Of a DNA stretch of 64,000 nucleotides, positions 1 to 35,285 are shown in pieces; position 1 is the first letter of the stretch; every line of letters starts with the position of its first letter. This DNA comes from an uncultured Bacilli bacterium (GTDB lineage: Bacteria > Bacillota_I > Bacilli_A > RF39 > UBA660): assembly GCA_950097225.1 (NCBI GenBank), contig CATNCE010000002.1, positions 5,495-69,494 on the forward strand, given 5' to 3'. The notes beneath the pieces were generated by a model. The model did no database searches, was not told where the DNA came from, and saw only the letters and a list, made by a program, of their open reading frames with translations. The position numbers and the translations under genes were made by a program.

Positions 1-3000
1 ATTAAACTTCTCATTATAGATTTTACTTAATCTTTCTCTACGGTCTATATCGCTCCATATCCACTCATCAAAAGCAGTTTTAATTTGCTCTTGTTTTGCT
101 TGTGCGATAGCAGTTTCCTTTTTATTTAACTCTGGTACTTTTTTACCATCTTTCTCAATATAGTCATATATTCTAACATCTTTTAAATTAAGAGTTTCTT
201 CTATAATCTTGTAAGCATTTATTCTTCCTGTTCCATAAGTAGAATATGCTTTTACATTTTCCCTATCATAGTTTTTACCTTCAATATTCCATTGGGCTGT
301 ACTTTCCATAAAATGCACTTGTATTCTATCTCTAATATTATAGGATGGCGATAATAGATAATCTATAAAGTCATCTATAACATCTGTTGGAAGCCAAGTT
401 GCACCAAGTCTAACACTTATCTCTTGTGGCTCTAAATCTTTCGGCATTACTTCTTCAAGACATTTTACATTTATATTGAATCTAGGGTCATCTTCAGCAA
501 ACTCTTTGGCTATCTTTAATTTCTCACGAATATTGCCAGATAGGTACTCATCAGCAGTTACCCATATATTTGGATCTCCATATTCTGGTACATTGAATAT
601 AACACCCTCTAGGTCAGTTATCATTTTGTCCATATCAAGCCCACATAGTTTCTGCATAAACTCTAAATCAACTCTAGCCTTTTCAGACATTGAAACAATT
701 AAGGCTTCATTTGCAGTATCTACACTCGTTACTTCCTTATGTGGAAGTATTGTTCTTTTGGTAAACATATCTGCTTTTTTAAGAAGTTCTTTGTTCTCAT
801 CAAGTATCTCTAAAGAACATAATAGATAAAAACTATTATCATTAGAAAAAGCAGAGGTATTTGCTCTGCTATTGATAAGTCCATATTTTTTAGTAAAACT
901 GTCATATAGTTTATTAAGTTTTGCTTGTTCTTGTTTTATATCTTCTTCTGGGAAGTCCTCTGTTTGTAATTCTAATAGATTTCTTACACACTCTCTTATT
1001 TCTATTAAGCCTCTAATACGATTTTCAGTAGTAAGTGGCAATTCTTGTGGATACATTCTACTATTCTCACGATAATAGACTTTATTATCAACAATGGTAT
1101 ATGAGAAGTTTTTAACATTATAATCAGCAGGAATAGATAAATCTTCTTCATCTTCTCCTATATCATCTATCTCATATTCTTTTATTTCAGCGTGTATATT
1201 AGAAATAGCATTGTTAAGTTGTTCTTCTAGTGATATATCTTCTCTTGCTTCACAAGTAGAGTCCATACCATATCTAGTAGATTCCATTTTCATATTACCA
1301 CATACCATATCTGGATTATCAACAAAATATTTATTCATTTTGATACCATTTTCATCAGTATCTAAATATACCCAGTCTGGCTCTAAATCGGTTATAGAAT
1401 CTCGTTTTTGTAAGAAGATAATATCAGAAGTAACTTTTGTTCCTGCGTTATCTTTAAAGGTATTATTCGGAAGTCTTATTGCTCCTAACAAGTCGGCTCG
1501 TTGTGCTATATACTTTCTAACACTAGGATTTTCCTTATCTAAAGTACCTTTACTTGTTATGAAAGCAACAATTCCACCCGGTCTTACCTTATCAAGAGTT
1601 TTTGCAAAGAAATAGTCGTGAATTAGGAAGTTATGCTTATCATATCTCTTGTCTAATAATTTAAGACTATCAAATGGAACATTACCTATTGCCCCATCAA
1701 AGAAAGAATCTGGAAGTTCTGTATTTTCATAGCCTTGTACTGCAATAGAACTTTTTTGATATAGTTGTCTAGCAATTCTACCAGATATACTATCAACTTC
1801 TATACCATATAACTTACAGTCTTTTAAAGTATCGGGTATCATACCTAGAAAATTGCCAACTCCACAACTAGGCTCTAGTATGTTTCCATCTTTCATACCC
1901 ATACTTTCTAATGCTTTATACATTGTACGAATAACTACTGGAGGTGTATAGAAAGAAGTTCTTGTAGAACTCATTGCCGACCTATATTCTTCATCATCAA
2001 GAATATTTTTAAGTTTTAAATGCTCATCTGCCCAAGAAGAATTATTTTCTTCAAAGGCTTGTGATAAACCACCCCAACCGACATACTGCGATAGTATTTG
2101 TTGTTCCTCTGGAGTAGCAAAGCGATTTTCTTCTTCGCATTGTTTCAACGCTTTAATTGCTGCAAGATTACGATTAAACTTTTCTCTATCACTTCCGACA
2201 CCTAACAAGTCATCAGTAATATGGAAGTTATTTCTATCTTCATTTTTGATTTCTGGGTGTATATCAAAAGTGGTAACTCGTTTTCTTCGCTTTTTAGCAA
2301 TATTAGGTATAATTGTTTCCTTTTTTTGTTCTGCTTCTTTTTCAGCAAGTAAAGATAATACTTTGCTTAATTCTTCATTACGAAAAATAGGAAAACCTAC
2401 ACCATTTTGAAAAGTAATATCTTTTAGTGAAACGACATCATTATCAATACTATCAATGGTATATTCTCTATCGCCAATAATTATATTTTTACCAATAATA
2501 TCTTCTTCTAACTTTTCTTGATCTGCGACTTTTGTTTCATATTTTTTACGATATTCTTTTAATCTTTCTAAATCGTGATTATTAACTTTATCTACTGTGC
2601 CATCTTCATTATAGTCAAATAGTTCATTTAATAGAAAATCATAAACTTCTAGTCCCTCTAAATCAATGTCATCAGAATAAATAACGATATTCTCGTTAGA
2701 ATCGAAGTTTACCTTAATATCACTCATATCATAAAGTGATAAAATATGCTCTACTAAATCTACTTCATCATCATATTCTCCATACTCATTATGCTTTTCT
2801 AATTCTCCAGTTTCAGTAACTTTGATTTTCAGATGGTCATTACACGGATTTTCTTTTACTTTCCTATCAAACTCATCAAAAGAAAATTCTTGATTAAATA
2901 ATGGATATTGATAGTCATATAATCTAACAATATCATTATCTAATGAAAGTATTTCAAACTTATCTGCACCAATATATACTTGGTCGCCTACTTGATAATA

Positions 3001-5268
3001 GTAGTCTGGGAAAGTTTCATTTAATTCTTTGATAAAGTTATCTATTATCTTTTTATCTTCATCATCACTATCTAAATCATTCCCTAGATTTTGAATATAC
3101 TCTATAAAACCTCTTAATTCACTTGGATTATGGATTTGATTATCTATATCTCTAATGACATCTTCTTCGGTTTCGCCATTTTCAAGATTTGCTTCATAGC
3201 CTTGTAAATCATATTCTTTGATAAAATCATTTAATCGTTTTGCTAGACTATCTTCTTGTTTTTCAGTAAAAGTATCTTCTTGATTTAATTCATCTATTCG
3301 TTCCTGTTCTTCTCCTAACCAAGCAGGATACTCTCTTAATTCTTTTGGATTAAGGTATCTATTAAGGCTAATTAGTTCCTTTATTCGCTTTTCAACATAA
3401 TTCCATTTTAAAAGTTTTTCTTTTCTATTTTCAAGATTTCCACGATATAAAGTAAGTCCTTTACTATCAGCAGTATAACCTATACCAGATCCACGAATAA
3501 TATATGAACTTCCACTTAATCCATACATATTTTTTATATAGTTAATATTTTCAGTTGTAGATAAACTTTTTTGAAATTGTCTATATATAGCATACTTTGT
3601 TTCAGTATGTCGTGTTTGAAAATATTTATCAATAAACTCTTGCGAAAATTCTAATTCGGGTATTTCTTTGCTATTTTCTTCATCTAATAAAGTCATCTGC
3701 TCTTTTTCAGATGGTAAGTATTTTTCTCTATCATTTAATTGATGAAGTAAAATCATTGAATCATAATGATATGTTAAATCTTCCCAAGATATAAAACTTT
3801 CTGTATCTCGTGATAAAAAATTACCTTTCCATAGTAATAAACCATTTTCAAAGGCTTTGTAACCATACATTTGTGTTCCAATAAAAATACCCACATATAC
3901 ATTTTCAAAAGAATTTTTAATGAACTCTGCTCTTTTTAAAGGCTCTTTTTCTAGTTCAAAATATCTTTTTACTTCTGCTTTGGGTATTTTTAAATGTGCA
4001 TTAGCAAGTATTTGATTGATTTTGTCATCTGTAACAACATACGGACAATGTGTCCCACTATCTACATCCCAAAAATCTAACTGTAAATTAGTTCTCTCGT
4101 TACTATCTCCTCTGCTCTCGCTTTCAAGTTGTTCATTAAGCCTATCCACTTCATCTGGTCTTTGGCTTTCAATTCTTCTGTTATATTCTCTTTCTTCGCC
4201 ATTTCCTCTATCATTTGTTCCACTCTCGTTTCGGCTATCGTTTGAACTTCCATCAAGTGTTCTGGTAATTTGCCCTGCATTAGAAGTGTCGTATATAGAG
4301 GCTTGTCGTTCTTCTTCAAGTGGCTTAATCTCATCAATGCGTATTTCCCATTTACTTGTTCTTCTTGTGGTGGTACTAGGTCTGGTATTTGATAATCGCC
4401 CACCATTTTGTAACTTATTTCTTTCATCTAAATCACTCCTCTCGGCATTATTCTTGCCATCATCTAAATCATACTCGTTTTGCTTATTATTATCAAATGT
4501 GTGAATTTTATCAATTTCACTTATTCGCACATTTTTTATTGTGCTATATATTTCACGAAGTCCAGACTCGGCAATATCACTTGTTGCCATACCTAGTCTT
4601 GTTATCGTATCATAAGTATTGAAATTTAATAATTCTCTAAAATCTTCCTTATCAAAATAATCATTAGGGTTTATTCCACAACGCTTTAACATTACATAAG
4701 CAACACTATTCTCTAATACTTTCTTGTAAATAGTTTTTATATTCAACTCATCAAGTTCTTCTAAAAAACTATTATCTTTAAAATACATTAGATTTGATAA
4801 ATAATCTGGCAAGTTATCTTCTACCATATTTTTAGCACTAGAAATAATAGCACTTGCTATGGTAGAGTTATCTTCTAATTCTCCATATCTATTTTCTAGG
4901 GCTTCGATAACATATTCTTCATAAGGTTTCGTAACAGACCATAGTATAACATTTTTACCGTGCTTACTATTGGTATCACTTACATCAAAAACATATCTTA
5001 AATAAGTATTACCATTATTTTCTGCAAGAAGTGCTATACCAGTTGCTCCTTTATTAACCCATCTTTTTAATGACTTATTCCAAGTTTCTATTTCAGCACA
5101 AGCACTTGCATAAGGCTTTTGTGCATAAATTAAAACTTGATCGGAAAATGGATACTTATAATTCATTGCAGCACACTCTAAAAATGATAGCCATTCACTT
5201 TGATTTGTACTTAAATCTTTTAATGTTTCCGAATATAATTCTGTTATATTTCTTAATTTATTAGCCAC
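1..5268 (-). CDS. Giant polyvalent conjugative-element protein, first 1756 codons only (3' end lies beyond the window start). Contains an ArdC-like N-terminal ssDNA-binding region, a low-complexity linker, middle LPD/YodL-like regions and an N6-adenine DNA methyltransferase module. A SNF2-type helicase part is expected outside the window.
   Basis: Absent from the supplied ORF track because it has no stop in the window. Hand translation of the minus strand: GTG at 5268 with GGAGG at 5276-5280 (7-nt spacer), and the frame stays open to nt 1. N-terminus reads YPFSDQVLIYAQKPYASACAEIETWNKSLKRWVNKGATGIALL (ArdC_N-like). SAM motif I is NILEPSCGVGNF (~1850-1890) and motif IV is GAIGNVPF (~1672-1696). 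The last residues are WIWSDIDRRERLSKIYNEKFN. Confidence 0.8.
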   Translation of the reverse strand, partial: MANKLRNITELYSETLKDLSTNQSEWLSFLECAAMNYKYPFSDQVLIYAQKPYASACAEIETWNKSLKRWVNKGATGIALLAENNGNTYLRYVFDVSDTNSKHGKNVILWSVTKPYEEYVIEALENRYGELEDNSTIASAIISSAKNMVEDNLPDYLSNLMYFKDNSFLEELDELNIKTIYKKVLENSVAYVMLKRCGINPNDYFDKEDFRELLNFNTYDTITRLGMATSDIAESGLREIYSTIKNVRISEIDKIHTFDNNKQNEYDLDDGKNNAERSDLDERNKLQNGGRLSNTRPSTTTRRTSKWEIRIDEIKPLEEERQASIYDTSNAGQITRTLDGSSNDSRNESGTNDRGNGEEREYNRRIESQRPDEVDRLNEQLESESRGDSNERTNLQLDFWDVDSGTHCPYVVTDDKINQILANAHLKIPKAEVKRYFELEKEPLKRAEFIKNSFENVYVGIFIGTQMYGYKAFENGLLLWKGNFLSRDTESFISWEDLTYHYDSMILLHQLNDREKYLPSEKEQMTLLDEENSKEIPELEFSQEFIDKYFQTRHTETKYAIYRQFQKSLSTTENINYIKNMYGLSGSSYIIRGSGIGYTADSKGLTLYRGNLENRKEKLLKWNYVEKRIKELISLNRYLNPKELREYPAWLGEEQERIDELNQEDTFTEKQEDSLAKRLNDFIKEYDLQGYEANLENGETEEDVIRDIDNQIHNPSELRGFIEYIQNLGNDLDSDDEDKKIIDNFIKELNETFPDYYYQVGDQVYIGADKFEILSLDNDIVRLYDYQYPLFNQEFSFDEFDRKVKENPCNDHLKIKVTETGELEKHNEYGEYDDEVDLVEHILSLYDMSDIKVNFDSNENIVIYSDDIDLEGLEVYDFLLNELFDYNEDGTVDKVNNHDLERLKEYRKKYETKVADQEKLEEDIIGKNIIIGDREYTIDSIDNDVVSLKDITFQNGVGFPIFRNEELSKVLSLLAEKEAEQKKETIIPNIAKKRRKRVTTFDIHPEIKNEDRNNFHITDDLLGVGSDREKFNRNLAAIKALKQCEEENRFATPEEQQILSQYVGWGGLSQAFEENNSSWADEHLKLKNILDDEEYRSAMSSTRTSFYTPPVVIRTMYKALESMGMKDGNILEPSCGVGNFLGMIPDTLKDCKLYGIEVDSISGRIARQLYQKSSIAVQGYENTELPDSFFDGAIGNVPFDSLKLLDKRYDKHNFLIHDYFFAKTLDKVRPGGIVAFITSKGTLDKENPSVRKYIAQRADLLGAIRLPNNTFKDNAGTKVTSDIIFLQKRDSITDLEPDWVYLDTDENGIKMNKYFVDNPDMVCGNMKMESTRYGMDSTCEAREDISLEEQLNNAISNIHAEIKEYEIDDIGEDEEDLSIPADYNVKNFSYTIVDNKVYYRENSRMYPQELPLTTENRIRGLIEIRECVRNLLELQTEDFPEEDIKQEQAKLNKLYDSFTKKYGLINSRANTSAFSNDNSFYLLCSLEILDENKELLKKADMFTKRTILPHKEVTSVDTANEALIVSMSEKARVDLEFMQKLCGLDMDKMITDLEGVIFNVPEYGDPNIWVTADEYLSGNIREKLKIAKEFAEDDPRFNINVKCLEEVMPKDLEPQEISVRLGATWLPTDVIDDFIDYLLSPSYNIRDRIQVHFMESTAQWNIEGKNYDRENVKAYSTYGTGRINAYKIIEETLNLKDVRIYDYIEKDGKKVPELNKKETAIAQAKQEQIKTAFDEWIWSDIDRRERLSKIYNEKFN
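4077..4427 (-). CDS. tnpV: TnpV-family small protein (116 aa), encoded in the +1 frame entirely inside the giant polyvalent ORF
   Basis: ATG at 4427 is immediately preceded by an in-frame TAG, with AGGAG at 4436-4440 (8-nt spacer). The product MKEISYKMVGDYQIPDL..GKYALMRLSHLKKNDKPLYTTLLMQGKLPEHL..ITEELKAKDQMKWIGLMNNLKARAEEIVTRELIYS matches the TnpV pattern from memory (GDYxxPxL, YLKxH, LKAxDQMxWVxxMNNI, AEEIVxxELIY). Confidence 0.65.
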   Translation of the reverse strand: MKEISYKMVGDYQIPDLVPPQEEQVNGKYALMRLSHLKKNDKPLYTTLLMQGKLPEHLMEVQTIAETRVEQMIEEMAKKENITEELKAKDQMKWIGLMNNLKARAEEIVTRELIYS

Positions 5269-5300
5269 TTACTCACCTCCTTATCTTTATTTTTCTTTTA

Positions 5301-5639
5301 CTACTCATTGTTAGAGTTATCTTGTTTAAGACTTTCTCTAGCATTTACTAAAACTTCATAATAGTTAGTTTCTATTTCTATATCTTCGGTATTAACAAGT
5401 AACATATAGATAATTTCACTTGCTTCGTTAGGATAGAAACGAATATCAACAAAAGTTTCTTGTTCTTCAGTAACTCGTGGGATACTATATCTCAATAATT
5501 TTTCTTTCAGTTTAGTAGCAGTTTCGCTTATTTTTTCATTATTAGAAGTCGTATATCTGGTAAGCATTTCAATTAAATAATTAAATTTTCCTATACTTAA
5601 ATCCACCTTAACTGGTGGTATTCTTTTTTGATATGGCAT
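5301..5639 (-). CDS. Hypothetical small ICE protein (112 aa)
   Basis: ORF with AAAGGA upstream of the ATG. It is tightly packed between neighbouring ICE genes. No motif recognised. Confidence 0.45.
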   Translation of the reverse strand: MPYQKRIPPVKVDLSIGKFNYLIEMLTRYTTSNNEKISETATKLKEKLLRYSIPRVTEEQETFVDIRFYPNEASEIIYMLLVNTEDIEIETNYYEVLVNARESLKQDNSNNE

Positions 5640-5641
5640 AA

Positions 5642-5872
5642 TTAACCATCCTTTCTATTTTCTTTATAGCCACTTAAAAAAGCAATGATTTGCTTATTCT
5701 TAACGGCATTTTTAAATTCAATGATAATCATAGTTTCATTATTTTGTAGATTTGGTATTTTCGTTAAATCTTCCAATTTTAAAGCAAGTATTTTTTTATC
5801 AGTATTGAATCCTGCTTCAAATAGTTTTTCTAAAGTCTTTGTAATTTGACCTATATTATATTTTGTTTCCAA
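5642..5872 (-). CDS. Hypothetical small ICE protein (~76 aa)
   Basis: The track ORF runs to 5908. I prefer the TTG at 5872, which sits 6 nt after GGAGG (5879-5883) and removes the overlap with the sortase stop at 5884. No motif recognised. Confidence 0.4.
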   Translation of the reverse strand: METKYNIGQITKTLEKLFEAGFNTDKKILALKLEDLTKIPNLQNNETMIIIEFKNAVKNKQIIAFLSGYKENRKDG

Positions 5873-5883
5873 ATAAATCCCTC

Positions 5884-6540
5884 CTAGACTTTCTCTACTA
5901 ATTCGCATATATAGATAATTTGCTTATTCGTATTGTGTCTGCAAGTGATTAAAGTTAGTGTACTTTTTTCGGCATTTCTAACAATATTAGCAGTACCAGT
6001 TTTCTCAATGTCGTATTGATTAAGAACTTTGTATTTGTACTCGTTACCATTATAGAAAATACTTACTTCATCATCTCTTTCGAGTTTATGAAGATTTTTA
6101 AAATAAGCAGTTCTTCCACTTCCAGAGTGTCCTGCTAGGATCACATTTCCTTTGTCTTTATCTGGCATATCAGATTCTTTGACAACAAGTATATTTCTAT
6201 TAACATTGTTATAATAACTACCTTTATTTGCTAGACCTTTTTCTAACCCTATTTTAGGTATTTTGATTACTGCAAAATAATCTATTTTCGTTTTAGTAGG
6301 TTGTGGCTTTTCAGTTTCCACTTTTTCTTCTGGCACTTCTGGAGTAGTATCTTCTGCAATTTCTTTTTGTTCTTCAAAGAAAGTATCAATTAACTGTTCT
6401 TCGTTTTTTGTTTCAAGATAATTATATAAATACTTACCACCAATGATTAAAGTACCTAAAATGATAAGTAAAGAGCCAACTATGATTAGTTGACTCTTAC
6501 TACCTTTATTATTCTCGATTTTGTTTTTTCTTTTTAACAT
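5884..6540 (-). CDS. Sortase-family transpeptidase, membrane anchored
   Basis: N-terminal TM segment, His motif VILAGHSG and catalytic Cys motif TLTLITCRHN. The start overlaps the 3' end of the adhesin gene by 32 nt. Confidence 0.8.
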   Translation of the reverse strand: MLKRKNKIENNKGSKSQLIIVGSLLIILGTLIIGGKYLYNYLETKNEEQLIDTFFEEQKEIAEDTTPEVPEEKVETEKPQPTKTKIDYFAVIKIPKIGLEKGLANKGSYYNNVNRNILVVKESDMPDKDKGNVILAGHSGSGRTAYFKNLHKLERDDEVSIFYNGNEYKYKVLNQYDIEKTGTANIVRNAEKSTLTLITCRHNTNKQIIYICELVEKV

Positions 6541-9238
6541 AGATAATCGCTCCTATTCCTCCTAGAATAAACATTGTTCCAACAATTTCAATGAAGTGTG
6601 AATCAGTAATACCTGTACTTGGTACTTCAACGATTACTTTTTCATCAGTCATTGTTGCTTTTACAATTTCGCCATCTTCTTTGATTTCAAAATACATTCT
6701 TTCTGGATTTAAAGTATAGCCCTCTGGTGCTTCTTTCTCCAAAATATAGTATTTTCCATAACGAATTTCTGAAATAGTAATTTTTCCATTGTCATCAGTT
6801 CTTCCACTAAAAATTAACTCATCTTTATCATTGTAGATTTCGATTAAAGTGTTAGGTAGTGGCTCTCCTGTTGATACATCAGTTTTAGTAAATTCAAGAG
6901 TTCCTGTTACTGGTTTATTTTTCATTTCAGCCTTAACGATTTCTCCGTTTTCTTTTAATTCAAAATAAACTTTTTCATCAGTTATTACATAGCCTGTGCT
7001 TGGCTCTTTTTCTACGATATAGTATTTTCCAACTTTTAAATCTGTAATAACGATTTTTCCATCTTGATCTGTTTTACCAGTAAAGATTAGTTCATCATTT
7101 TCAGTATAAATTTCAATGATAGTATCTGGAATAACATCTCCATTTACTAAATCAGTTTTAGTAAATTCAAGAGTAGCCTTTTTAAGATAATTTAAAGCAC
7201 TATATGATTCATAAACTATTGGAGTTTCATCATCAACTTGTTTTAATGTGAAATAGTGTTTATCTCCATCAAGAATATAGTCATCTTGTGTTTTTACTTC
7301 AATTAAATAGTATTTTCCTAGTGGAAGTTTCTTTGTTTTAGCATAGCCGTTTTCATCTGTAACGATAGTATCTACTTTGTCGCCTTTATTATAGTATAAA
7401 TGGTTTCCATCAGCAGACTTAATATCTTCTTCTGCATAGATTTCAAAAGTAACTCCACTTAATTTTTTCTTAGCATAAACATATTCGCCATCTTTAATCA
7501 CTAAATCTTCGCCAACTTTATAAATCTCTAATTGACCTTTAATAGGTGTATTCTTATAAGTTACTGTGATAAATGCTCCATAAGTTGTATAGTCATAATG
7601 CGTATCATTTCCAATAGTGAATTTTAGACCGTTTTTATCTTTTAAGTAACCATTTGGTGCAGACACTTCAATTAGTTTGTAATTTCCTGCAACTAATTTT
7701 AAAGGTGTTACTAATATACCATTTTCATCAGTTTTAAATTCACTAATTACTTTACCACCTACGAATTGAGATACATATTGTTTAGTATCTTCATTAAAGA
7801 TTTTGAAAGTAGTATCTTTAATGGCAATAGTCTTTCCAGTTTCTTCATCTACTTTTATTACTTTCAAATAAGCAGTCAAAGAGTTGTTTAAAATATTGTA
7901 ATATTGCTCTTTTTCGCTTGTTTCACTTACTGTGATATAGAAGTCATAAATCTTTTCATATCCAGTTGTCGTATTTACTTGATGGAACTTCCAAACTCCA
8001 TAAGGCAAATTGATAGAAGCATAACCGTTTTTATCTGTTGTGATTTCATCAAACTTGTTTCCGTTTGGGTAATAAATTTCAAAAGTAATACCTGCTTCTG
8101 CATTTAGGAATTTTGTTTCTCCCTCCACGTGTTCGTATTGTTTTAAAATACTTACATAGTTTTTAATTACTTTTTCTACAACATCTACTCTTGCAGAGTC
8201 TTTTCCTTTTACATCAATATTGTAGCGAGTTTTATCTAATTCATAACCCTCACTTGGTTTGATTTCTTGTAAATAGTAATCATTCCAAGATAATACTGCG
8301 TCACTTTTAAAGTAACCGTTTTCATCAGTAACAACTGTTGTCACTAATCTTCCCGTAGCAGTTTCGTATATACCATACTCTGCTCCTTTTAAAGTTGCTT
8401 GACCCTGTGCAGTTTCAGTTTCAACATCTTTCTTATAACCCTCTACTGGTGTTGTATAACTATTTACTCTAACTCTAGCCATAACTGGATCAGTAGTTCC
8501 AGGTACAAACATATTTTGAATTTCGTTTCCAACGAATAACTTATAGCCACTAGCATAAGGCATATTTTTTGTTAAAGTTAAATCTATTTTTCCATTTCTA
8601 GTAGGCTTAATTGTTAGTGTATTTCCATTAACACTATATTCTGCACCACTAACACTTACACTATAATTTCCAAGTACATTATTAGTATCTGTTAGTGTAA
8701 TAGTTTCTCCTACTTGTGCTTTATAAACTCCACCATCAAAACTTGGTCTATCATAGTGGTGTTCGATTAGTCTATTGATTTCTGCTTTTTCTGTTGATAC
8801 ATCAAATGGTGTTCCTGCTCCCCATCTTTCTGTTGAGAAAGTTGTATTGGCTCCGTGTCCAATGATAATATCCCATATCATACCTTGAGTAGCAGCACGA
8901 TATTGTAGTGTTTGGTGTCCCGGATAAGTATAACCGTAGTAACCGATTAACAATAATCTTTCTTTGATTTCATTTGGAAGTCCTGTTGCTTCCCAACTTC
9001 CAGGATTATAAATAGTTCCCTCTGGTATATTTGGCTCTATGCAATAAGATACTTCGCCATCCATTTCATATTGCATAAAATACCAAGAATGATGGTCAGT
9101 TCCATCTGCTCTTGCTCGATCATAATAATAGCCGGATTTTGTTTTTGTTAAAGTTGCTGCATTTACTGCTTGAGCATTAACAGTAAATCCAAGTAAAATA
9201 CCTAGTGTTAAAACTAGGCACATTCCAATTTTTTTCAT
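6509..9238 (-). CDS. Cell-wall-anchored surface adhesin: N-terminal thioester domain, then multiple Cna-B/SpaA-type (isopeptide-type) repeats and a VPSTG sorting signal
   Basis: Signal peptide MKKIGMCLVLTLGILLGFTVNAQA. Thioester signature YCIEPN (Cys codon 9041-9043) plus ATQGMIWDI (Gln codon 8885-8887). Repeated GKYYLIE..PxGY modules. C-terminus is VPSTG, a hydrophobic stretch, then KKKKQNRE. Confidence 0.85.
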   Translation of the reverse strand: MKKIGMCLVLTLGILLGFTVNAQAVNAATLTKTKSGYYYDRARADGTDHHSWYFMQYEMDGEVSYCIEPNIPEGTIYNPGSWEATGLPNEIKERLLLIGYYGYTYPGHQTLQYRAATQGMIWDIIIGHGANTTFSTERWGAGTPFDVSTEKAEINRLIEHHYDRPSFDGGVYKAQVGETITLTDTNNVLGNYSVSVSGAEYSVNGNTLTIKPTRNGKIDLTLTKNMPYASGYKLFVGNEIQNMFVPGTTDPVMARVRVNSYTTPVEGYKKDVETETAQGQATLKGAEYGIYETATGRLVTTVVTDENGYFKSDAVLSWNDYYLQEIKPSEGYELDKTRYNIDVKGKDSARVDVVEKVIKNYVSILKQYEHVEGETKFLNAEAGITFEIYYPNGNKFDEITTDKNGYASINLPYGVWKFHQVNTTTGYEKIYDFYITVSETSEKEQYYNILNNSLTAYLKVIKVDEETGKTIAIKDTTFKIFNEDTKQYVSQFVGGKVISEFKTDENGILVTPLKLVAGNYKLIEVSAPNGYLKDKNGLKFTIGNDTHYDYTTYGAFITVTYKNTPIKGQLEIYKVGEDLVIKDGEYVYAKKKLSGVTFEIYAEEDIKSADGNHLYYNKGDKVDTIVTDENGYAKTKKLPLGKYYLIEVKTQDDYILDGDKHYFTLKQVDDETPIVYESYSALNYLKKATLEFTKTDLVNGDVIPDTIIEIYTENDELIFTGKTDQDGKIVITDLKVGKYYIVEKEPSTGYVITDEKVYFELKENGEIVKAEMKNKPVTGTLEFTKTDVSTGEPLPNTLIEIYNDKDELIFSGRTDDNGKITISEIRYGKYYILEKEAPEGYTLNPERMYFEIKEDGEIVKATMTDEKVIVEVPSTGITDSHFIEIVGTMFILGGIGAIIYVKKKKQNRE
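6638..7174 (-). repeat. Tandem in-frame duplication (91 + 88 codons) encoding two Cna-B-like domains at the C-terminal end of the adhesin
   Basis: TLEFTKTDLVNGDVIPDTIIEIYTENDELIFTGKTDQDGKIVITDLKVGKYYIVEKEPSTGY... is followed by TLEFTKTDVSTGEPLPNTLIEIYNDKDELIFSGRTDDNGKITISEIRYGKYYILEKEAPEGY... Confidence 0.8.
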
Positions 9239-9304
9239 TTTTAATTTTCTCCTTTCTTACTCCTAAAATTAGGGCATAAAAAATGACTCTTGTTTTAAGA
9301 GCCA

Positions 9305-9997
9305 CTAATACATACTTTTTAATTTTGCGTCATTTCCCTCTCCACTCGCACAAAAGAAATGCAAATAATACCAAGTCTTACCGTTTTCATCTATCACAGA
9401 TGGATACACCCTAAAATAGTTTATATCTGGTTTTATCGGTGCTTCTGGGTGTTGTTCGTTATAATCTAAAACATAATCCAGTTCTTTGCTCTTAATTTCA
9501 TTACCACGAGCAGTCGCTTCACTATCAGAAGCAAACTCTTTTTTACCACCAGTTATTGATTCATAAAACTTTGTAGTTGCTCCACCGTTTTGTGGTTGAT
9601 TACTTGGAGTTTGACTAGGTGTAGTATTGTTACTTACATTTGGAGTTTCTTTTGGTGTTTCCTTTGGCACTTCTTTTTTCACAGAATCATTTTGCTTATT
9701 TTCTGTTTTGTTTTCAGATTTACTTGCTGAAGAAACATTCTTATTTTCTGGTTTAGAATCTGACTTAACTTCTTTTTTGGTTTCTTTTACTTCATCAACC
9801 TTTTCTTCTGGTATTATTTCACTTTCTGCTACTTTGTTTTCTTCGCTTTTAGATTCTTCTGCCACTTTTTCTTCTATGGTTTTCTCACTAACATTAACCT
9901 GTTCTAGTTTTGGCTTTTCTTGTTTATCTTGCAAATAGAAAACTGTACCTCCTGTCATAGAAATTAAAATGCTAATTAAAATCAATATTTTTTTCAT
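9305..9997 (-). CDS. Hypothetical membrane-anchored or secreted protein with a Lys/Glu/Ser-rich low-complexity region
   Basis: N-terminal hydrophobic segment MKKILILISILISMTGGTVFY, a K/E/S/N-rich middle and a globular C-terminal ~90 aa. No family recognised. Confidence 0.5.
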   Translation of the reverse strand: MKKILILISILISMTGGTVFYLQDKQEKPKLEQVNVSEKTIEEKVAEESKSEENKVAESEIIPEEKVDEVKETKKEVKSDSKPENKNVSSASKSENKTENKQNDSVKKEVPKETPKETPNVSNNTTPSQTPSNQPQNGGATTKFYESITGGKKEFASDSEATARGNEIKSKELDYVLDYNEQHPEAPIKPDINYFRVYPSVIDENGKTWYYLHFFCASGEGNDAKLKSMY

Positions 9998-10164
9998 ACA
10001 AATTCATCCCTTTCTTGATTTGTTGATGTTAGTATAAACTAAAGTATTTTTATTTGCATTTGTGTAAATTTCTAATATATATTTTTTTCAGTTAGTAATA
10101 ACAGTTAGTATATAAATACTAGGGGTAGGTTGTAGGAAGGGGAATAATGGAATAATAACTCCCA

Positions 10165-11109
10165 CTATCTAGCACCCTGTTGTCTTTGTCTTTCCATAGC
10201 CCTATTGTAATAGTCTAATGCTTTGTAAATATGCTTTATCCATTCGGTAGTTGGCATACCTTTTGGCATTTTAGGTTGTAAGTCTTTAAAATCTAATTTT
10301 AGTTTTTCAACTTGATTAGGTTTTTCACGACACATAATTTCTTCAATTTTATCTTCGCTTAACTCTCCCTTTTTACTTAAATCTTTCATTTCTTGAGCTT
10401 GGGATACTGTTGGTGTAGCAACATTACATTCAATACTATTTAAAAGCCATTTTTGTTCTTGCTTTGTAAGAAATGAAATTTCATACGCAGGGCTTAATGC
10501 AATAGTTTCATCATCTACCATATCAAGTAAAGGCTTTACTAATTCAGTAAGTCTTATAAATCTCTTAATTTGAGTGGTACTTTCGCCAAGTTCATCAGAT
10601 AATATTTCAACAGATTTTTTTCCAATCGACTTGTGTCCGAGTTGGTCACAAGTTAAATCATTTCTTTTACCTTGATGTGTCATTGCTTCTAATTTCATTT
10701 TATAAGCAAAGGCTCGTTCACTAGGCAATATCTTTTCCCTTTGTAAATTGCTATCTACCATAATAATAGTGGCTTCATCATCTGTAAGGTTTCTAACAAT
10801 ACACGGCATAGTTTCTTTATTAGCAATTTCACTTGCTTTTTTTCTTCTATGTCCAGAAATCATTTGATACTTTCCATTTGGAAGTGGTCTAACAAGTACA
10901 GGCAATAACACACCATATTCACTTATACTTTGTGCCATTTCTTGCATTTCTTCATTTACAATTACCTTGAATGGGTGATTTGGGAAGTCTTGAATATCTG
11001 CTAGTGAAATATCTACAACTTTTTCTAAATTGGCTTCTTGCCTTTCTTGCTCTGTTGTAAATAAATCATCTAACTTTGGTAGAGGCATTTTTATTTCGCT
11101 CTTTGCCAC
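10165..11109 (-). CDS. parB: ParB/Spo0J-family partition (nuclease-like) protein of the ICE
   Basis: ParB N-terminal box YQMISGHRRKKASEIA. Start moved to GTG 11109 (AGGAGG at 11119-11124, 9-nt spacer) instead of the track start at 11175. Confidence 0.8.
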   Translation of the reverse strand: MAKSEIKMPLPKLDDLFTTEQERQEANLEKVVDISLADIQDFPNHPFKVIVNEEMQEMAQSISEYGVLLPVLVRPLPNGKYQMISGHRRKKASEIANKETMPCIVRNLTDDEATIIMVDSNLQREKILPSERAFAYKMKLEAMTHQGKRNDLTCDQLGHKSIGKKSVEILSDELGESTTQIKRFIRLTELVKPLLDMVDDETIALSPAYEISFLTKQEQKWLLNSIECNVATPTVSQAQEMKDLSKKGELSEDKIEEIMCREKPNQVEKLKLDFKDLQPKMPKGMPTTEWIKHIYKALDYYNRAMERQRQQGAR

Positions 11110-11890
11110 TTTCAAGCACCTCCTTTGCAAATGAAGAATATGCTTCTGCCACTTTTCCATTTTTGTCATAATCAAAAATACTTTGTCCAGTAGAAGTTGA
11201 TTCTGCTGTTTTTATTGCTAAAGGTATTTGTGTATCGTAAATTTTTATAACTCTACCATAATTTTCTTGCAACTGTACTTTCATTTCTCTTGATAGATTA
11301 GTTCTTTTATCTACTAAAGTTAGTAATACACCATCTATTTTTAATTGTGGATTTAATTTAGTTCTTGCTTTATTAACAGACTTTAATAACTCGGTCATTC
11401 CAACTGCTGATAAATACTGACTTTGCATTGGGATTATAACACTATCTGCACTCGCTAAAGCATTAACTGTTAAAGTTCCTAGTGATGGTGGACAGTCTAT
11501 AAGAATATAGTCATAGTTATCTTTTACTTTATCCAAACAATTCTTTAGTAAATATTCCCTACTCATAGCACTATACAAGACTGGCTCTAATACTGACAGT
11601 CTTAAATTAGATGGTATCAAAGAAACATTTTCGTTATGATGAAGTATTGATTCTTCTACTTCAATATTTCTACCCTCTGCTGACTGCTCTAATAAATCTG
11701 CTACTGTTAATGACAACTTATCTTGATCTCGCCAACCCATATATAAAGTAAGACTACCCTGTGGGTCTGTATCTACTAACAATACCTTTTTGCCTTCTTT
11801 TGCTAAAGCAACTCCTAGACTAAAAGTTGTGGTGGTCTTGCCCACTCCACCTTTTTGATTTGCCACTGCAATTACTTTGCATTGCGACAT
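11066..11890 (-). CDS. parA: ParA/Soj-family ATPase of the ICE
   Basis: Deviant Walker A KVIAVANQKGGVGKTTT, then ILIDCPPSLG. Start set at ATG 11890 (GGAGG at 11899-11903, 8-nt spacer). The track N-terminal extension to 12025 is rejected. Confidence 0.85.
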   Translation of the reverse strand: MSQCKVIAVANQKGGVGKTTTTFSLGVALAKEGKKVLLVDTDPQGSLTLYMGWRDQDKLSLTVADLLEQSAEGRNIEVEESILHHNENVSLIPSNLRLSVLEPVLYSAMSREYLLKNCLDKVKDNYDYILIDCPPSLGTLTVNALASADSVIIPMQSQYLSAVGMTELLKSVNKARTKLNPQLKIDGVLLTLVDKRTNLSREMKVQLQENYGRVIKIYDTQIPLAIKTAESTSTGQSIFDYDKNGKVAEAYSSFAKEVLESGKERNKNASTKVR

Positions 11891-11956
11891 AAACATTTCC
11901 TCCTTTCTTTTAAACTCTAGCCACTCTATATAAATAAAATGGCTATGTATGGGCAT

Positions 11957-11986
11957 AAAAAAAGAACTGACCATTATAATCAGTTC
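11957..11986 (-). terminator. Rho-independent terminator ~70 nt upstream of parA
   Basis: Minus strand reads GAACTGA-TTATAATGG-TCAGTTC followed by T7. Confidence 0.5.
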
Positions 11987-12180
11987 AAAGTATGTTTTTG
12001 TGATTTTATTATTTAGTGTCTGCAATTTGGCTCATAAGTGAGGAAACAAGTGAGAACCTATATGTTCTTAAATGTCGTAATCACCTATCTAATTCCTATT
12101 ATAAATAATGCCAAAATTACTATGTTTTTATGAATTTTTATTGTTTTTGACCGTTTTTTAATGAAAATATGCAAGATCTA

Positions 12181-12247
12181 AATTGGATAATTTCCTTTAT
12201 TTATAAGGGTTTAAGGGTGTTCTTAATTAAATCGTAATCAACCAGTT
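12181..12247. repeat. 67-bp direct repeat, copy 1 (64/67 identical to 15093-15159)
   Basis: aattggataatttcctttatttataagggtttaagggtgttcttaattaaatcgtaatcaaccagtt compared base by base with copy 2; 3 mismatches. Confidence 0.9.
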
Positions 12248-12326
12248 GATTGTTGTATTTTGTCGATTATTGTTGTCCATTGTTTTCACTTCCTTTTTAA
12301 AGTCTTGAACAAATATAATTATAACA

Positions 12327-12353
12327 TAAAAGAGTAGATTTTGTACTTACTCT
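12327..12353 (-). terminator. Possible weak terminator after the HEPN gene
   Basis: Minus strand AGAGTA-N11-TACTCT followed by TTTTAT, 20 nt after the stop at 12374. Confidence 0.35.
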
Positions 12354-12373
12354 ATTCTTATTTACAATTGCTA

Positions 12374-13783
12374 TTAATCAGTATTAATAATCATATGACA
12401 TTGAAACAAATCGTTTATGCAATTCTTAATACTATAATTATCTAATCCTAATCTTTTTAATTGCATCATATAAATAACTCTTTCTAAAAATATAATATCT
12501 AGCATAGCTAAATCAGTAAAATCTTTATTAAGATTTCCATGAGCAAAATCATTACGCTGTTCAGCTAATCTATGCCCCATATCTTTATAAATTACTTTTT
12601 CATCATTCATTCCATATAATTGATTTGCAAAATCTTTAGTAATATCATCTAATTGATTAAATGTATAATCAAGATTTGCATCTAAACCTGTTAAATCAAC
12701 AAAATCATGTAATTTATTAATTATTTTCTTAGCGCGTCTATTATTACCTCTATACTTATCTTCTAATTGAATTAATTCTATATTAATTATTGCTTCTGCA
12801 TTTATTCTAGCCTGTTTCTTTCTCTTTCCTTCTGGAAACAATTGAGAAAACTCCCATTCAAATCCAGCAGTTGTTAATACAAAACTTGATTCTGTCATTA
12901 CATGCGAATCATCATATGATAAAGGTATATGACGAGTATACAATGTATTATCAGATATTCCCTGTAAAATGTTATGGGCAATACTATATACATAATCCAA
13001 TGGTATAAACCTCTTAGAAATAATTTCTTCATCTTCTGCTATTAAAAATTCATCATTTATGATTACTACACCATTTTTTTCATATAATTCTTCTTCGTTT
13101 AAAAAACTAGTATAAACTTCTTTAAAAGTAATATTTTGCCGATATGTTAAAAATTGTATAAACTTTTTAGCAATATAATAAATTCTTCTGATAAACATAT
13201 AGTCATCAGTTGGTTCAAAATCAAATGACATTCTTGTTCTAATTTTTAATGGATGTTCTAAATCTTTTCCACTAAAAACTTTATCTATATCAAAATTACA
13301 TTTTACTTTTCTTCCATCAATTTCAAATTCTTCTGATTTTATACCTACAACATCACAAGGTTTTAATTTCAAGTCTACTTCTTCTTTACTTGGATTGAAA
13401 GATTTGATTGTTCTTTTTGTATTGTAAATATAATTTAATTCACTTGAATAAAAATTAATTTTAGCAATTTTGTCTTTTCTATTTACCCTTATTACCATTT
13501 TAATAATTATCTTTAATACAGAGTTTAACCTCCCTATTTGATAACTTTTTGGTATCATAATAATTTTTTCATAAGTTTCACTTGAAATTCCTACCAAATA
13601 ATCATTTTCTATAATCGGATGAATTGGTGTAACTACACCTGGAATACCATTAGCTAAAGGCTCATAAAACATAGCATTACTTTTTTCTTTAAATCCTTCT
13701 TTTGGAACTAAACTTAATTCTCTATTATTTTCTAACACGAAAAAATATTCAATATCTTTATAAGTTAAATTACCACTAATCAT
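12374..13783 (-). CDS. HEPN-domain protein (469 aa), ApeA-like candidate abortive-infection/defence effector
   Basis: C-terminal motif LAEQRNDFAHGNL contains the HEPN Rx4H signature (R-N-D-F-A-H). The large N-terminal region was not recognised. AGGTGA sits upstream of ATG 13783. Confidence 0.55.
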   Translation of the reverse strand: MISGNLTYKDIEYFFVLENNRELSLVPKEGFKEKSNAMFYEPLANGIPGVVTPIHPIIENDYLVGISSETYEKIIMIPKSYQIGRLNSVLKIIIKMVIRVNRKDKIAKINFYSSELNYIYNTKRTIKSFNPSKEEVDLKLKPCDVVGIKSEEFEIDGRKVKCNFDIDKVFSGKDLEHPLKIRTRMSFDFEPTDDYMFIRRIYYIAKKFIQFLTYRQNITFKEVYTSFLNEEELYEKNGVVIINDEFLIAEDEEIISKRFIPLDYVYSIAHNILQGISDNTLYTRHIPLSYDDSHVMTESSFVLTTAGFEWEFSQLFPEGKRKKQARINAEAIINIELIQLEDKYRGNNRRAKKIINKLHDFVDLTGLDANLDYTFNQLDDITKDFANQLYGMNDEKVIYKDMGHRLAEQRNDFAHGNLNKDFTDLAMLDIIFLERVIYMMQLKRLGLDNYSIKNCINDLFQCHMIINTD

Positions 13784-13785
13784 TT

Positions 13786-14156
13786 TTATTTATCACCTAT
13801 TCCTTTTTGAATTAACTCAGCTGTATCTTTCATTTCTTTATATTCTTCATAATGACAAGCATAGGTAATTCCAAAAACACAATTATATAGATTGTTAACA
13901 TCGGTAATTATAAAATCAATAAATGCTTCAATTTTGTCATATTTCACTTTCACTTTAACTTTACCTACTTTTATCTTAGAATCAAATTACCTTAAATATA
14001 TAAGGATTTTTTGTTTTCATTATAAAATCCAATATTCTTTCATTACTAGGTTTTCTTCTGTCTATTTTTATATTTGTTATTTCATCCACATCTTCTAATT
14101 TTACATCATCAAGATTTTAATTTTTCTGCTACTCCTTTAATATTATATTTATTCAT
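13786..14156 (-). pseudogene. Frameshifted remnant of a small mobile-element gene (~120 codons when reconstructed; possibly DUF6870-like)
   Basis: Three consecutive minus-strand ORF pieces in different frames: MNKYNIKGVAEKLKS*, NLDDVKLEDVDEITNIKIDRRKPSNERILDFIMKTKNPYIFKVI*, and FDSKIKVGKVKVKVKYDKIEAFIDF...ELIQKGIGDK*. The first shift lies in an A-run. The final stop at 13786-13788 is 2 nt before the HEPN ATG. Confidence 0.4.
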
Positions 14157-14218
14157 TTTCTACCTTTTTTCTATAATAATTTTATTATTTTGAAAGAAGA
14201 ATACAGATGTACAAAATA

Positions 14219-15061
14219 CTAGATATTATCTTTTTTTCCTAATAGTTTTATCTTTTCTGCATTATTAAGTATATCAAGTTGATACTTAGCAATGCTACTT
14301 GATATTTCAAATCTTTCTTCTTTGCTTTTTCCTTCTTTAATTAGTTCTGCGTTATGTGATTCTAAATTAGATAATACTGTTAATTCATTTATTGACGCAT
14401 AATCTCTAACATTTGAATTTTTTGCTAAATTAGGATTAAGTTCTATCCATCTTTTAGCAGTTGTATTAAATAAGGCAACATTTAAAATATCTGCTTCTTC
14501 TGCATACTTTAACCATTCTCTATTTTTATAATAATCTTTACTAGGTAATATATAATTTTTAATTGCATCTGTATGAATAAGATAATTATTTTTAGTTAAA
14601 ATTCTTTTTACATCCCATTCCCTATTTTGATTTTCTAACTCTTTTAGTCTTTCAAATTCTTTTATCAAATATAGTTTAAAAACTGGACTAATAGAAGATG
14701 CAAATTCAAAAGCAATATCTTTATGAGTATAAGTTCCGCCATATTTACCACGTTTCGAATATATCCCAATTGCGTTCGTTTTATTACACCATTCTGTAAC
14801 ACTTAATGTAAAAGTATGAAGTCCTGCCTCACTTTTAAACCCGTCGAATTCGACGGAATTAAAATCTGGATTGTAAATTGACTCCCAAGTACCTAAAAAT
14901 TCTAAAGTAATTCTATTTCTTAACCAATTTCTGATAACATCATCTGATGTAGATTTTCCTTCTTTAAATTTGGTAAAATCAGAAATACAAATATAATCGC
15001 TATCATTTATATTTGTTATATTCACTTTAATATTTTGAACTTCAATTATTTTGTTTGTCAT
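14219..15061 (-). CDS. KilA-N domain DNA-binding protein (280 aa)
   Basis: GGTYTHKDIAFEFASSISPVFKLYLIKEFERLKE and the preceding ICISDFTK...NWLRNR region match the KilA-N pattern from memory. AGAGGTGA lies upstream of the ATG. Confidence 0.7.
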   Translation of the reverse strand: MTNKIIEVQNIKVNITNINDSDYICISDFTKFKEGKSTSDDVIRNWLRNRITLEFLGTWESIYNPDFNSVEFDGFKSEAGLHTFTLSVTEWCNKTNAIGIYSKRGKYGGTYTHKDIAFEFASSISPVFKLYLIKEFERLKELENQNREWDVKRILTKNNYLIHTDAIKNYILPSKDYYKNREWLKYAEEADILNVALFNTTAKRWIELNPNLAKNSNVRDYASINELTVLSNLESHNAELIKEGKSKEERFEISSSIAKYQLDILNNAEKIKLLGKKDNI

Positions 15062-15092
15062 ATATTCACCTCTTTTCTATGTTCTTAAATTC

Positions 15093-15159
15093 AATTGGAT
15101 AATTTTCTTTATTTATAAGAGTTTAATGGTGTTCTTAATTAAATCGTAATCAACCAGTT
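15093..15159. repeat. 67-bp direct repeat, copy 2
   Basis: aattggataattttctttatttataagagtttaatggtgttcttaattaaatcgtaatcaaccagtt. It ends 32 nt upstream of the KilA-N start codon. Confidence 0.9.
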
Positions 15160-15261
15160 TATATTTGTCTGGTTTTGCCGTTTTTTATTTGTACAATATT
15201 AGCACTTCTAATCTTTTAGAGTATCAAAATTGATACTTTTAATTGTCATTATTTTTTTCTA

Positions 15262-15537
15262 TTAATAGTAATAGATATCTTCTATTATTTGCCAGTCATT
15301 ATTTAAAATAACGCCATTTACTAATTTTGCACTAAATAATTCCTCTACGCTATTAAAATAAGACTCATCTGTTTTCCCTATCCATTGAAAAGATATTTTA
15401 TCTTTTAATGGTATAATCATATATTCGTTTCCATTTATTTTAACGCATAGCTCTGGTTCCACGCCTTTTTTTAAATACTCATTTAATTTTTGTTTAGTAT
15501 ATTTAATGTCATACTCATACATTTCTTCTTTGTTCAT
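15262..15537 (-). CDS. Hypothetical protein (91 aa)
   Basis: ORF overlapping the upstream P-loop gene by 23 nt, which suggests translational coupling. No motif recognised. Confidence 0.4.
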   Translation of the reverse strand: MNKEEMYEYDIKYTKQKLNEYLKKGVEPELCVKINGNEYMIIPLKDKISFQWIGKTDESYFNSVEELFSAKLVNGVILNNDWQIIEDIYYY

Positions 15538-16048
15538 TTTTAAGTTCTCCTTTTTTTATTATAGTATTTAAAATATTATCGGCCACCTTATCAACAGAAA
15601 TATTTGTAGTATCTATTTGATAACCATTGAAGTTTTTAAAAGCACTTATGAATTTGTCAACTTGTGCATAAGCCCATCCTGTGCTATTACCTCTTTTGTC
15701 TAATCTTTTTGCTATCTCTTCTTTTGTTGCGGTTAAAATAAAATCGTAAACTATTATGCCTTCATTTCTTAAATTACCAATAATTTCATTATAGTACTTT
15801 TTATTGGTTATCGTCATGGGAACAATCGTGACTCTGTGGCTACGATTTAAATCTTTTAGTATCTCAAAATTTAAAGTACGCCATAGCTCGTAATCTTGAA
15901 AGTCATCTTTCTTTTCCGGCATTATATTAAATAAAAATTCTCCAACGTTTTCTGGATCATATATAAGGGAATCTTTTATTTCTAACTTTAATGCGTTTGC
16001 TATAGTTGTTTTGCCTACACCAAAGCTGCCATTAATCCAAATGATCAT
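15515..16048 (-). CDS. TmrB-like P-loop ATPase/kinase-fold protein
   Basis: MIIWINGSFGVGKTTIA Walker A at the N-terminus. Start moved to ATG 16048 (GGAGG, 8-nt spacer). Confidence 0.6.
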   Translation of the reverse strand: MIIWINGSFGVGKTTIANALKLEIKDSLIYDPENVGEFLFNIMPEKKDDFQDYELWRTLNFEILKDLNRSHRVTIVPMTITNKKYYNEIIGNLRNEGIIVYDFILTATKEEIAKRLDKRGNSTGWAYAQVDKFISAFKNFNGYQIDTTNISVDKVADNILNTIIKKGELKNEQRRNV

Positions 16049-16088
16049 ATAGATTTCCTCCACATCAGTAAAATGATTCACTAAAAAA

Positions 16089-35215: not shown

Positions 35216-35285
35216 GAGCACATCCTATTCTTGTATATAAGTTAATTATACTAAATGAAAGCTTTTTTGAAAATACAAACAAAAG

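Follow-up and report, generated by a model that had tools for sequence, protein, structure and literature searches.

A tnpV gene inside a giant open reading frame

At one end of a 64,000-nt stretch of DNA from an uncultured Bacilli bacterium (GenBank assembly GCA_950097225.1, contig CATNCE010000002.1, positions 5,495 to 69,494; hereafter, the window), a giant open reading frame (ORF) of the polyvalent-protein type encloses a complete gene of the TnpV family, on the same strand and in a different frame. We consider it quite likely, from comparison of homologous sequences, that the two form a genuine, conserved pair of overlapping genes, in which TnpV would have an internal start of its own while the giant protein would read the same DNA as a linker. 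A first-pass annotation had proposed such nesting from two long same-strand frames that are open over the same 351 nt; both are present in the window sequence, and the peptide strings quoted for them are correct. The following features define the overlap (the frame of the giant ORF is called frame A throughout).

1-5268, minus strand: giant (polyvalent-type) ORF, first 1756 codons; one open frame from 5268 to position 1, running off the window edge
4077-4427, minus strand: tnpV, 116 sense codons and a TAG stop; +1 frame relative to the giant ORF; matches PF14198
4436-4440, minus strand: Shine-Dalgarno (SD) sequence AGGAG of tnpV, 8 nt 5' of the ATG; read within Glu-Arg-Ser in frame A
4428-4430, minus strand: TAG stop in the TnpV frame, immediately 5' of the tnpV ATG; rules out an upstream fusion in the window lineage

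The tnpV ORF begins with the ATG at 4427-4425 and ends with the TAG at 4079-4077, and its start stands, as first described, directly after an in-frame TAG and 8 nt beyond an AGGAG. The assignment of its 116-aa product to the TnpV family, initially made from its sequence pattern, was borne out by a profile search: the product matched Pfam PF14198 (TnpV) with E=1.1e-37 and 128.8 bits (cut-off 27) over its full length, residues 6-114 corresponding to profile positions 2-111 of 111. A protein search with it recovered 115 relatives of 66-150 aa, all of which carry PF14198 and several of which are named "TnpV protein" at NCBI. It aligned end to end with 26 family members, with W94, M98, N99 and E112 invariant in all of them. 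Its AlphaFold model (pLDDT 84.6) consists of an N-terminal beta-hairpin and five helices. The PHROGs match, phrog_24764, is a family without assigned function; profile searches of the PDB and NCBIfam for a TnpV function returned nothing usable, and a fold search found nothing similar (best E=6.8 in PDB with Foldseek and 1.8 in BFVD). Older literature likened TnpV to lambda-Xis (PMC3158075), an analogy that this fold search did not support.

Conservation of the nesting and of both open frames

Genome loci with a TnpV relative were retrieved from 80 species representatives, and de-duplication left 41 non-redundant loci for the stop statistics. In 79 of the 80 loci, TnpV (50-99% identical) lay wholly inside a longer same-strand ORF at a constant frame offset. 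The host ORF starts about 850 nt upstream of tnpV and is 2400-3100 codons long where the contig allows; in L001, a locus near-identical to the window, the complete giant ORF has 2599 codons. TnpV proteins only 33-37% identical to that of the window were likewise nested, on plasmids of Clostridium perfringens, Streptococcus suis, Virgibacillus and Cohnella, and at these plasmid loci frame A contained no stops and the other frame 10-19. Overall, in a census anchored on TnpV and built from the 80 top hits of each of two queries, out of more than 1100 TnpV hits, 126 of 168 TnpV loci were nested and 42 were stand-alone.

Because the same uninterrupted arrangement recurs in independent assemblies, namely in 79 of 80 species-level genomes and in complete plasmids of four taxa, including the near-identical L001 and L002, and frame A lacks stops in 40 of 41 non-redundant loci, the concern that an assembly or sequencing indel hides three ordinary adjacent genes (one for the N-terminal head domain described below, tnpV, and a methylase/helicase gene) is effectively excluded and its probability negligible, even though error-ridden contigs do yield frame switches here, as in protein P0024. 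A search for the three-gene architecture among short head-domain proteins of relatives found none. Two apparent cases were rejected: P0227 ends at a contig end, and P0179 is a decayed deletion remnant without tnpV.

The first-pass annotation had cautioned that a purine-rich stretch lowers the chance of stop codons in every frame. The premise holds, as the overlap is 67% purine compared with 59% for the whole giant ORF, but composition failed to explain the openness of frame A. As a null for frame A, each tnpV was recoded synonymously 2000 times with the codon usage of its own locus. For the window locus, a mean of 10.96 frame-A stops was expected and frame A remained open in none of the 2000 recodings; the third same-strand frame has 23 stops over the same tnpV. 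Across the 41 non-redundant loci, between 3 and 12.6 frame-A stops were expected per locus and none was observed in 40, while the third same-strand frame contained 11-30. The sole exception, L074, is a free-standing tnpV with 14 frame-A stops, and stand-alone tnpV genes generally had 2-14. The probability of an open frame A by chance was 0-0.03 per locus, which sums to a log10 P of about -114, a pooled value inflated by the shared ancestry of the loci.

Since no stops occur in 40 of 41 loci where recoding predicts 3-12.6, purine richness does not account for the open frame A. Chance does reach 1-3% per locus in GC-rich lineages; given the excess of stops expected under recoding and those found in stand-alone genes and in the third frame, it is nevertheless scarcely credible that frame A is open across tnpV by chance or composition, with no selection for reading through the giant gene. 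We read the comparison of loci as showing that both frames are held open by selection, in many lineages of gut Firmicutes.

A 162-codon antisense ORF (4016-4504, plus strand) also spans the whole tnpV region of the window. It was rejected as a third gene, antisense frames being open in just 0-13 of the 41 related loci, and it probably arises from the purine richness of the sense strand.

Selection on the TnpV frame and signals for its translation

Nucleotide entropy by codon position, computed over 35 loci, follows a normal coding pattern in the TnpV frame (0.86/0.63/1.25 for first, second and third positions). The same entropy is inverted in frame A (1.24/0.86/0.62), and the giant-gene flanks are normal. 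Among 106 moderately diverged pairs, the ratio of nonsynonymous to synonymous differences (pN/pS) was 0.35 in the TnpV frame and 1.39 in frame A over the overlap, with 0.37-0.42 in the giant-gene flanks. This substitution pattern indicates that amino-acid selection in the overlap acts on the TnpV frame. Amino-acid-level purifying selection on frame A was not found within the overlap, where openness alone appears to be selected. Variability at TnpV wobble positions amounted to 0.84 of that in a stop-avoiding simulation, compared with 0.92-0.96 in the flanks, suggesting that any constraint on frame A beyond staying open is modest at most.

The start of tnpV is conserved as well. An ATG occupies the aligned start position in 80 of 81 loci, and an SD (at least 5 nt) upstream of tnpV was found in 75 of 81, typically GAAAGGAG with a spacing of 8 nt. 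Going 5' from the ATG, the TnpV frame runs into a stop after a variable distance, from 0 to 324 nt, and therefore TnpV has no conserved upstream extension. The 60 nt at the tnpV start are less structured than other segments of equal length in the same ORF (mean z +1.02; 83% of 35 loci). Together, the conserved ATG and SD and the low predicted RNA structure suggest that tnpV has a start of its own.

Two loci depart from the common form. The ATG of other loci is replaced by ATT at L028:1330, and the tnpV at L034:8001-8393 has 133 codons, with a C-terminal extension, and is still nested. Upstream of the tnpV ATG in the window, at a distance of 40-60 nt and within the giant ORF (4468-4514, minus strand), are two promoter-like hexamer pairs, TTGATA-17-AATAAT and TTGATA-17-TATGAT.

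A different account would make the TnpV frame an untranslated shadow or relic, conserved as a by-product of constraint on the giant frame. We judge it very unlikely. It is true that annotated plasmid records of C. perfringens, S. suis and Virgibacillus name only the giant gene. However, variation is concentrated at third positions of TnpV, and pN/pS is the lower in the TnpV frame; the ATG and SD are conserved and the predicted TnpV fold is confident; and in stand-alone tnpV genes, which also occur, the other frame is closed. The earlier proposal of a genuine embedded gene thus gains support from the conserved nesting, the conserved start signals and the low pN/pS. The first-pass annotation had named three outcomes that would refute it, namely a product without significant TnpV similarity, an indel that breaks frame A, and homologues lacking the open +1 frame or the SD; each was checked, and each result favored the proposal.

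The giant protein and its predicted linker

Frame A starts with a GTG (5268-5266), 7 nt downstream of AAGGAGG. Further features of the giant gene in the window are listed here.

5276-5282, minus strand: SD sequence AAGGAGG of the giant gene, 7 nt 5' of the GTG
4504-5268, minus strand: N-terminal head domain, aa 1-255; confident predicted fold, weakly ArdC-N-like
4039-4503, minus strand: predicted disordered linker of the giant protein, aa 256-410; encloses the whole tnpV overlap (aa 281-398)
1672-1875, minus strand: N6-adenine methyltransferase motifs, read in translation; motif I EPSCGVGNFLG at 1843-1875 and motif IV GNVPF at 1672-1686

In an AlphaFold model of residues 1-456 of the giant protein, pLDDT is 80-98 over the head domain, drops below 50 over residues 256-410 and climbs again beyond residue 410. 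Across homologues, the frame-A segment of the overlap is 14% hydrophobic and 77% polar or disorder-promoting, while its flanks and TnpV itself are 33-36% hydrophobic. Because the frame-A overlap is poor in hydrophobic residues and its pLDDT is below 50, the giant protein is predicted to read the tnpV DNA as a disordered linker. The description of the host linker as the out-of-frame readout of tnpV, put forward in the first-pass annotation, therefore agrees with the substitution pattern, with the disorder-type composition and with the structural model.

Two labels given earlier to the parts flanking the linker hold in a reduced form. The best PDB fold match of the head domain was ArdC of R388 (6sna_A; Foldseek E=0.015, prob 1.0, TM 0.43), which is a weak match; profile searches found no sequence-level match of the head domain in Pfam or PDB, and a head-domain profile found no ArdC. 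The "ArdC-like" label is thus plausible but weak, standing as a resemblance of fold and not of sequence. For the body, the whole 1756-aa window fragment gave no Pfam match, and its domains were found by a Pfam search of the complete homologue L001 in chunks. Downstream of the methylase part, L001 matched ResIII (31.1 bits, cut-off 22.5) and Helicase_C (31.5 bits, cut-off 23.5); matches to Eco57I and SNF2 were both below the Pfam cut-off. The "methylase" label is weakly suggested by motifs I and IV, seen in translation, and by the sub-threshold Eco57I match in L001. The giant protein is accordingly described here as multidomain, with a methyltransferase (motifs I and IV in the window) and an SNF2-type helicase part (domain matches in L001).

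Free-standing copies and the history of the overlap

TnpV of Tn4451, Tn4453 and related mobilisable transposons belongs to the same family, has a similar length and likewise has its own SD and ATG. Stand-alone TnpV relatives adjoin TnpX-type serine recombinases, Mob_Pre or relaxase genes (PMC3158075; PMC12084326). Tn4451/Tn4453-type tnpV is free-standing, with its alternative frame full of stops, whereas the tnpV of the window lies wholly inside another gene. Among our loci, Tn4451-like free copies followed a serine recombinase, lay close to Mob/TnpW or preceded tet(O/W/32/O), and had 3-14 frame-A stops. A second free type belongs to a mobilisable module that is very common, TnpV-DUF6664-NikA-like-relaxase. 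When metagenomes were scanned with the Tn4451 type as the centre, 39 free and 43 nested tnpV copies were found; the scan used a TnpV alignment narrow enough to have a conserved stretch. The head domain was found upstream of none of the 42 free copies. One locus, L093, carries two different free tnpV genes within 7 kb: that at 1559-1948 (minus strand) adjoins Mob_Pre and a serine recombinase (Tn4451-like), and that at L093:8001-8354 (plus strand) lies in a TnpV-DUF6664-NikA-relaxase module.

In a neighbour-joining tree of 53 representatives, based on about 116 residues, the deepest branches are nested, the free copies are polyphyletic and require 3-6 state changes, and the root was nested in 170 of 200 bootstraps. 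Codon frequencies in the TnpV frame correlate better with those of the rest of the giant gene (0.49) than do those in frame A (0.28; P=0.002). With moderate confidence, we take the nesting to be old within the sampled family, the linker to be the overprinted reading and the free copies to be escapes. The arrangement would then have arisen once, early in the sampled family, with tnpV as the older reading; stand-alone tnpV genes in Tn4451-like and relaxase-carrying mobilisable elements would have left it later, upon which the second frame would quickly fill with stops. A separate and less likely idea is that the TnpV family itself was born by overprinting within the linker and escaped as a free gene afterwards.

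Head-TnpV fusions and a variable poly-A tract

A search with the head domain returned in-frame head-TnpV fusions of 368-415 aa, which make up about 33 of the best 120 homologues. Their junctions lie before the ATG and at about TnpV residues 26, 48, 52, 65 and 80, a spread of more than 250 nt. Because the junctions are scattered in this way, the fusions appear to be independent frameshifts and not the product of a single programmed site. At two fusion loci, L176 and L180, frame A is still open downstream, for 1578 and 2024 codons, respectively, and these look like nested-type loci with one indel. The lineage of another fusion, P0149, also has 14 intact nested loci. A further head-TnpV chimera, P0024, was rejected as evidence of frameshifting, all genes of its source contig being fragmented. 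In that source, L175 (VOFC01000043.1), nearly every gene is broken, including the adhesin gene and the giant gene, and the assembly is probably error-prone.

A cluster of events was seen in a GC-rich (Oscillospiraceae-type) lineage (proteins P0207-P0218, P0223, P0228 and P0230; locus L176:9900-10000), where 12 or more distinct small indels fall in a segment of about 30 nt. All of them shift the head-domain frame into the TnpV frame, the junction reading ...DEGRLP followed by DLLPPQEPETALGKYG. One of the indels is what would be expected if a 7-nt direct repeat, CGGCTRC, had lost a copy, according to a hand back-translation from the proteins that was not checked on DNA. The cluster may reflect a mutational hot spot or selection for fusion.

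In an AT-rich lineage (L180-L183, L188, L190 and L191; for example, L180:9799-9830), a poly-A tract of six, seven or eight residues (A6, A7 or A8) lies just 5' of the tnpV SD. With A6, the head is fused to TnpV; with A7, the giant ORF is continuous and tnpV is nested in it; and with A8, a stop follows the head domain. The A6 fusion protein is present in 25 collection blocks. Around the tract, L180 and L191 are identical at 524 of 525 positions, one A being the sole difference, and two sublineages that are 14% apart in DNA both have A6 and A7 alleles. The tract looks like a site of phase variation or of recoding or slippage.

TnpV might accordingly be made, at least in part, as a C-terminal fusion to the head domain, by programmed frameshifting, transcriptional slippage or phase-variable indels. 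The number of fusions among head-domain homologues, the long open frames downstream of those in L176 and L180, and the A6/A7/A8 tract in near-identical DNA, with A6 and A7 in both sublineages, speak for this explanation. Against it, the junctions are scattered, and fusion alleles are rare at the DNA level, occurring at none of the 168 TnpV-anchored loci. The window lineage has no long homopolymer and has a TAG immediately 5' of the tnpV ATG; elsewhere the TnpV frame is closed at varying distances upstream, and no conserved slippery site joining the head frame to the TnpV frame was found. That frame A stays open in A6 alleles does not settle the matter statistically (P about 0.14). On this evidence, we regard production of TnpV through fusion as unlikely.

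A related idea, for which we hold out somewhat more hope while still doubting it, is that the doubly open stretch acts as a product switch, in which a small indel or slippage re-routes translation. Depending on the event, the products would be the giant protein with free TnpV, a head-TnpV fusion together with a body that lacks its head, or nothing beyond the head domain. The phase-variable or recoding-prone A6/A7/A8 tract just upstream of the tnpV start would drive the switch in at least one lineage.

Genomic setting

Beside the giant gene in the window (5301-16081) lie genes for a sortase (5884-6540), a 909-aa SpaA/thioester-domain adhesin (6509-9238), ParB, ParA, a KilA-N protein and an AAA protein. 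Housekeeping genes follow from about 23 kb onwards (23173-64000), among them those for TGT, QueA, RuvB, a U32 peptidase, YceG and HSP90, and one boundary of the element probably falls between 16 and 23 kb. The housekeeping part contains three further very long ORFs on the minus strand, at 29459-35221, 38205-41942 and 41942-45586 (1920, 1245 and 1214 aa). No type IV secretion or relaxase gene was found inside the 64-kb window; the setting fits an integrated element with transfer genes beyond the window edge. At the homologous locus of an S. suis plasmid, VirB4-like and CD1108/CD1107-family genes flank the giant gene.

Discussion

The reading that we favor is that of a true, conserved same-strand overlap. 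Translation of the giant gene, which comprises a weakly ArdC-N-like head, a linker and a methylase/SNF2-helicase body, would stay in frame 0 across all 351 nt of tnpV. The product of the giant gene over this stretch would be a sequence-tolerant disordered linker of about 120 residues, whose freedom from stops is its only visible requirement. The same mRNA would carry an internal SD and an ATG in the +1 frame, at which ribosomes would initiate independently to make a folded TnpV of 116 aa (a beta-hairpin plus helices) that ends at the TAG inside the giant ORF. Because TnpV keeps constant company with conjugative transfer and mobilisation modules and is occasionally fused in frame to the head domain, we speculate that it may assist DNA transfer or establishment as an accessory factor, acting together with the head domain.

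Several observations weigh against this reading or some part of it. The internal SD of tnpV doubles as coding triplets (Glu-Arg-Ser) in frame A, and promoter-like hexamers upstream of tnpV are no more numerous than expected from shuffled sequence. The census was anchored on TnpV, and the pooled P values are inflated, as stated above. As for the history, the tree was built by neighbour joining on about 116 residues and parsimony favors the majority state, and a test of synonymous codon choice for the older frame did not discriminate between the two. Fold and sequence searches yielded no relative that hints at a function of TnpV. Finally, fusion alleles exist, so a head-TnpV product may be biologically relevant in some lineages.

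Same-strand embedded genes are already known as a phenomenon. In Bacillus subtilis, the small protein ComS is encoded out of frame within srfAB, likewise a giant multidomain gene read from the same strand, and the shared mRNA carries a separate ribosome-binding site for it. The two cases differ in that comS has 46 codons, is lineage-restricted and overlaps a catalytic domain of a nonribosomal peptide synthetase, whereas tnpV, with its 116 codons, is conserved in several Firmicutes classes, coincides with a predicted disordered linker and comes from a widespread family that also has stand-alone members. The Rz/Rz1 spanin genes of phage lambda and gene E within gene D of phiX174 are further cases of a fully embedded, +1-frame, same-strand gene in which both products are functional. 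Those are phage lysis genes with short embedded products. Here, by contrast, the host gene belongs to a probable conjugative element, and of the two frames it is the embedded one that is under the stronger constraint.

The giant gene itself resembles the polyvalent or methylase-helicase "dyad" proteins with an ArdC-N header, giant multidomain proteins of conjugative elements in which an N-terminal header precedes a methyltransferase/SNF2-type helicase body (Iyer et al. 2017, PMC5512222). Its neighbors are typical of Gram-positive conjugative elements. Its ArdC match is weak and by fold only. The survey of polyvalent proteins mentions neither TnpV nor overlapping frames nor frameshifts (Iyer et al. 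2017, PMC5512222), and a 2025 study of Faecalibacterium elements handles PF14198 proteins and methylase-helicase proteins separately. The ardD gene within tniA of Tn5053 (PMC3533173) is also a mobile-element gene hidden inside a gene of the same element; unlike tnpV, it is antisense, and broad conservation of it is not known. A literature search combining TnpV with nesting or overlap, PF14198, and polyvalent proteins with overlapping genes found no description of the nesting in the papers inspected. The nested pair of tnpV and giant gene is thus apparently undescribed.

Plasmid annotation mirrors this separation. PLSDB tables list TnpV alone, followed by a 6-7 kb stretch without a listed coding sequence, in Monoglobus and Cohnella (L081, NZ_OY725736.1; L088, NZ_CP051681.1); the tables omit pseudogenes, so such a stretch is no proof that annotation is absent. 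In C. perfringens, S. suis and Virgibacillus (L082-L084), they list the giant helicase-related gene alone, without TnpV, and the two are never listed together. Gene callers forbid nested genes, and we attribute to this the appearance of tnpV or the giant gene, and not both, in the tables. Counts of either gene in mobile elements of gut Firmicutes may consequently be too low.

Phages offer well-documented cases of long same-strand nested genes, which in bacterial DNA are rare and often disputed. The comparative support for the present case is unusually strong, as it draws on dozens of diverged lineages, on a product that belongs to a Pfam family and on stand-alone copies that serve as natural controls. 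The arrangement would also illustrate a simple route to gene fusion, in which translation of an upstream gene continues across an intervening gene, in another frame, and the intervening gene thereby serves as a linker. If the product switch is real, it would let elements vary their transfer or anti-restriction equipment. The uncharacterised TnpV family is now tied to the head domain of polyvalent transfer proteins, which offers a concrete starting point for finding its function.

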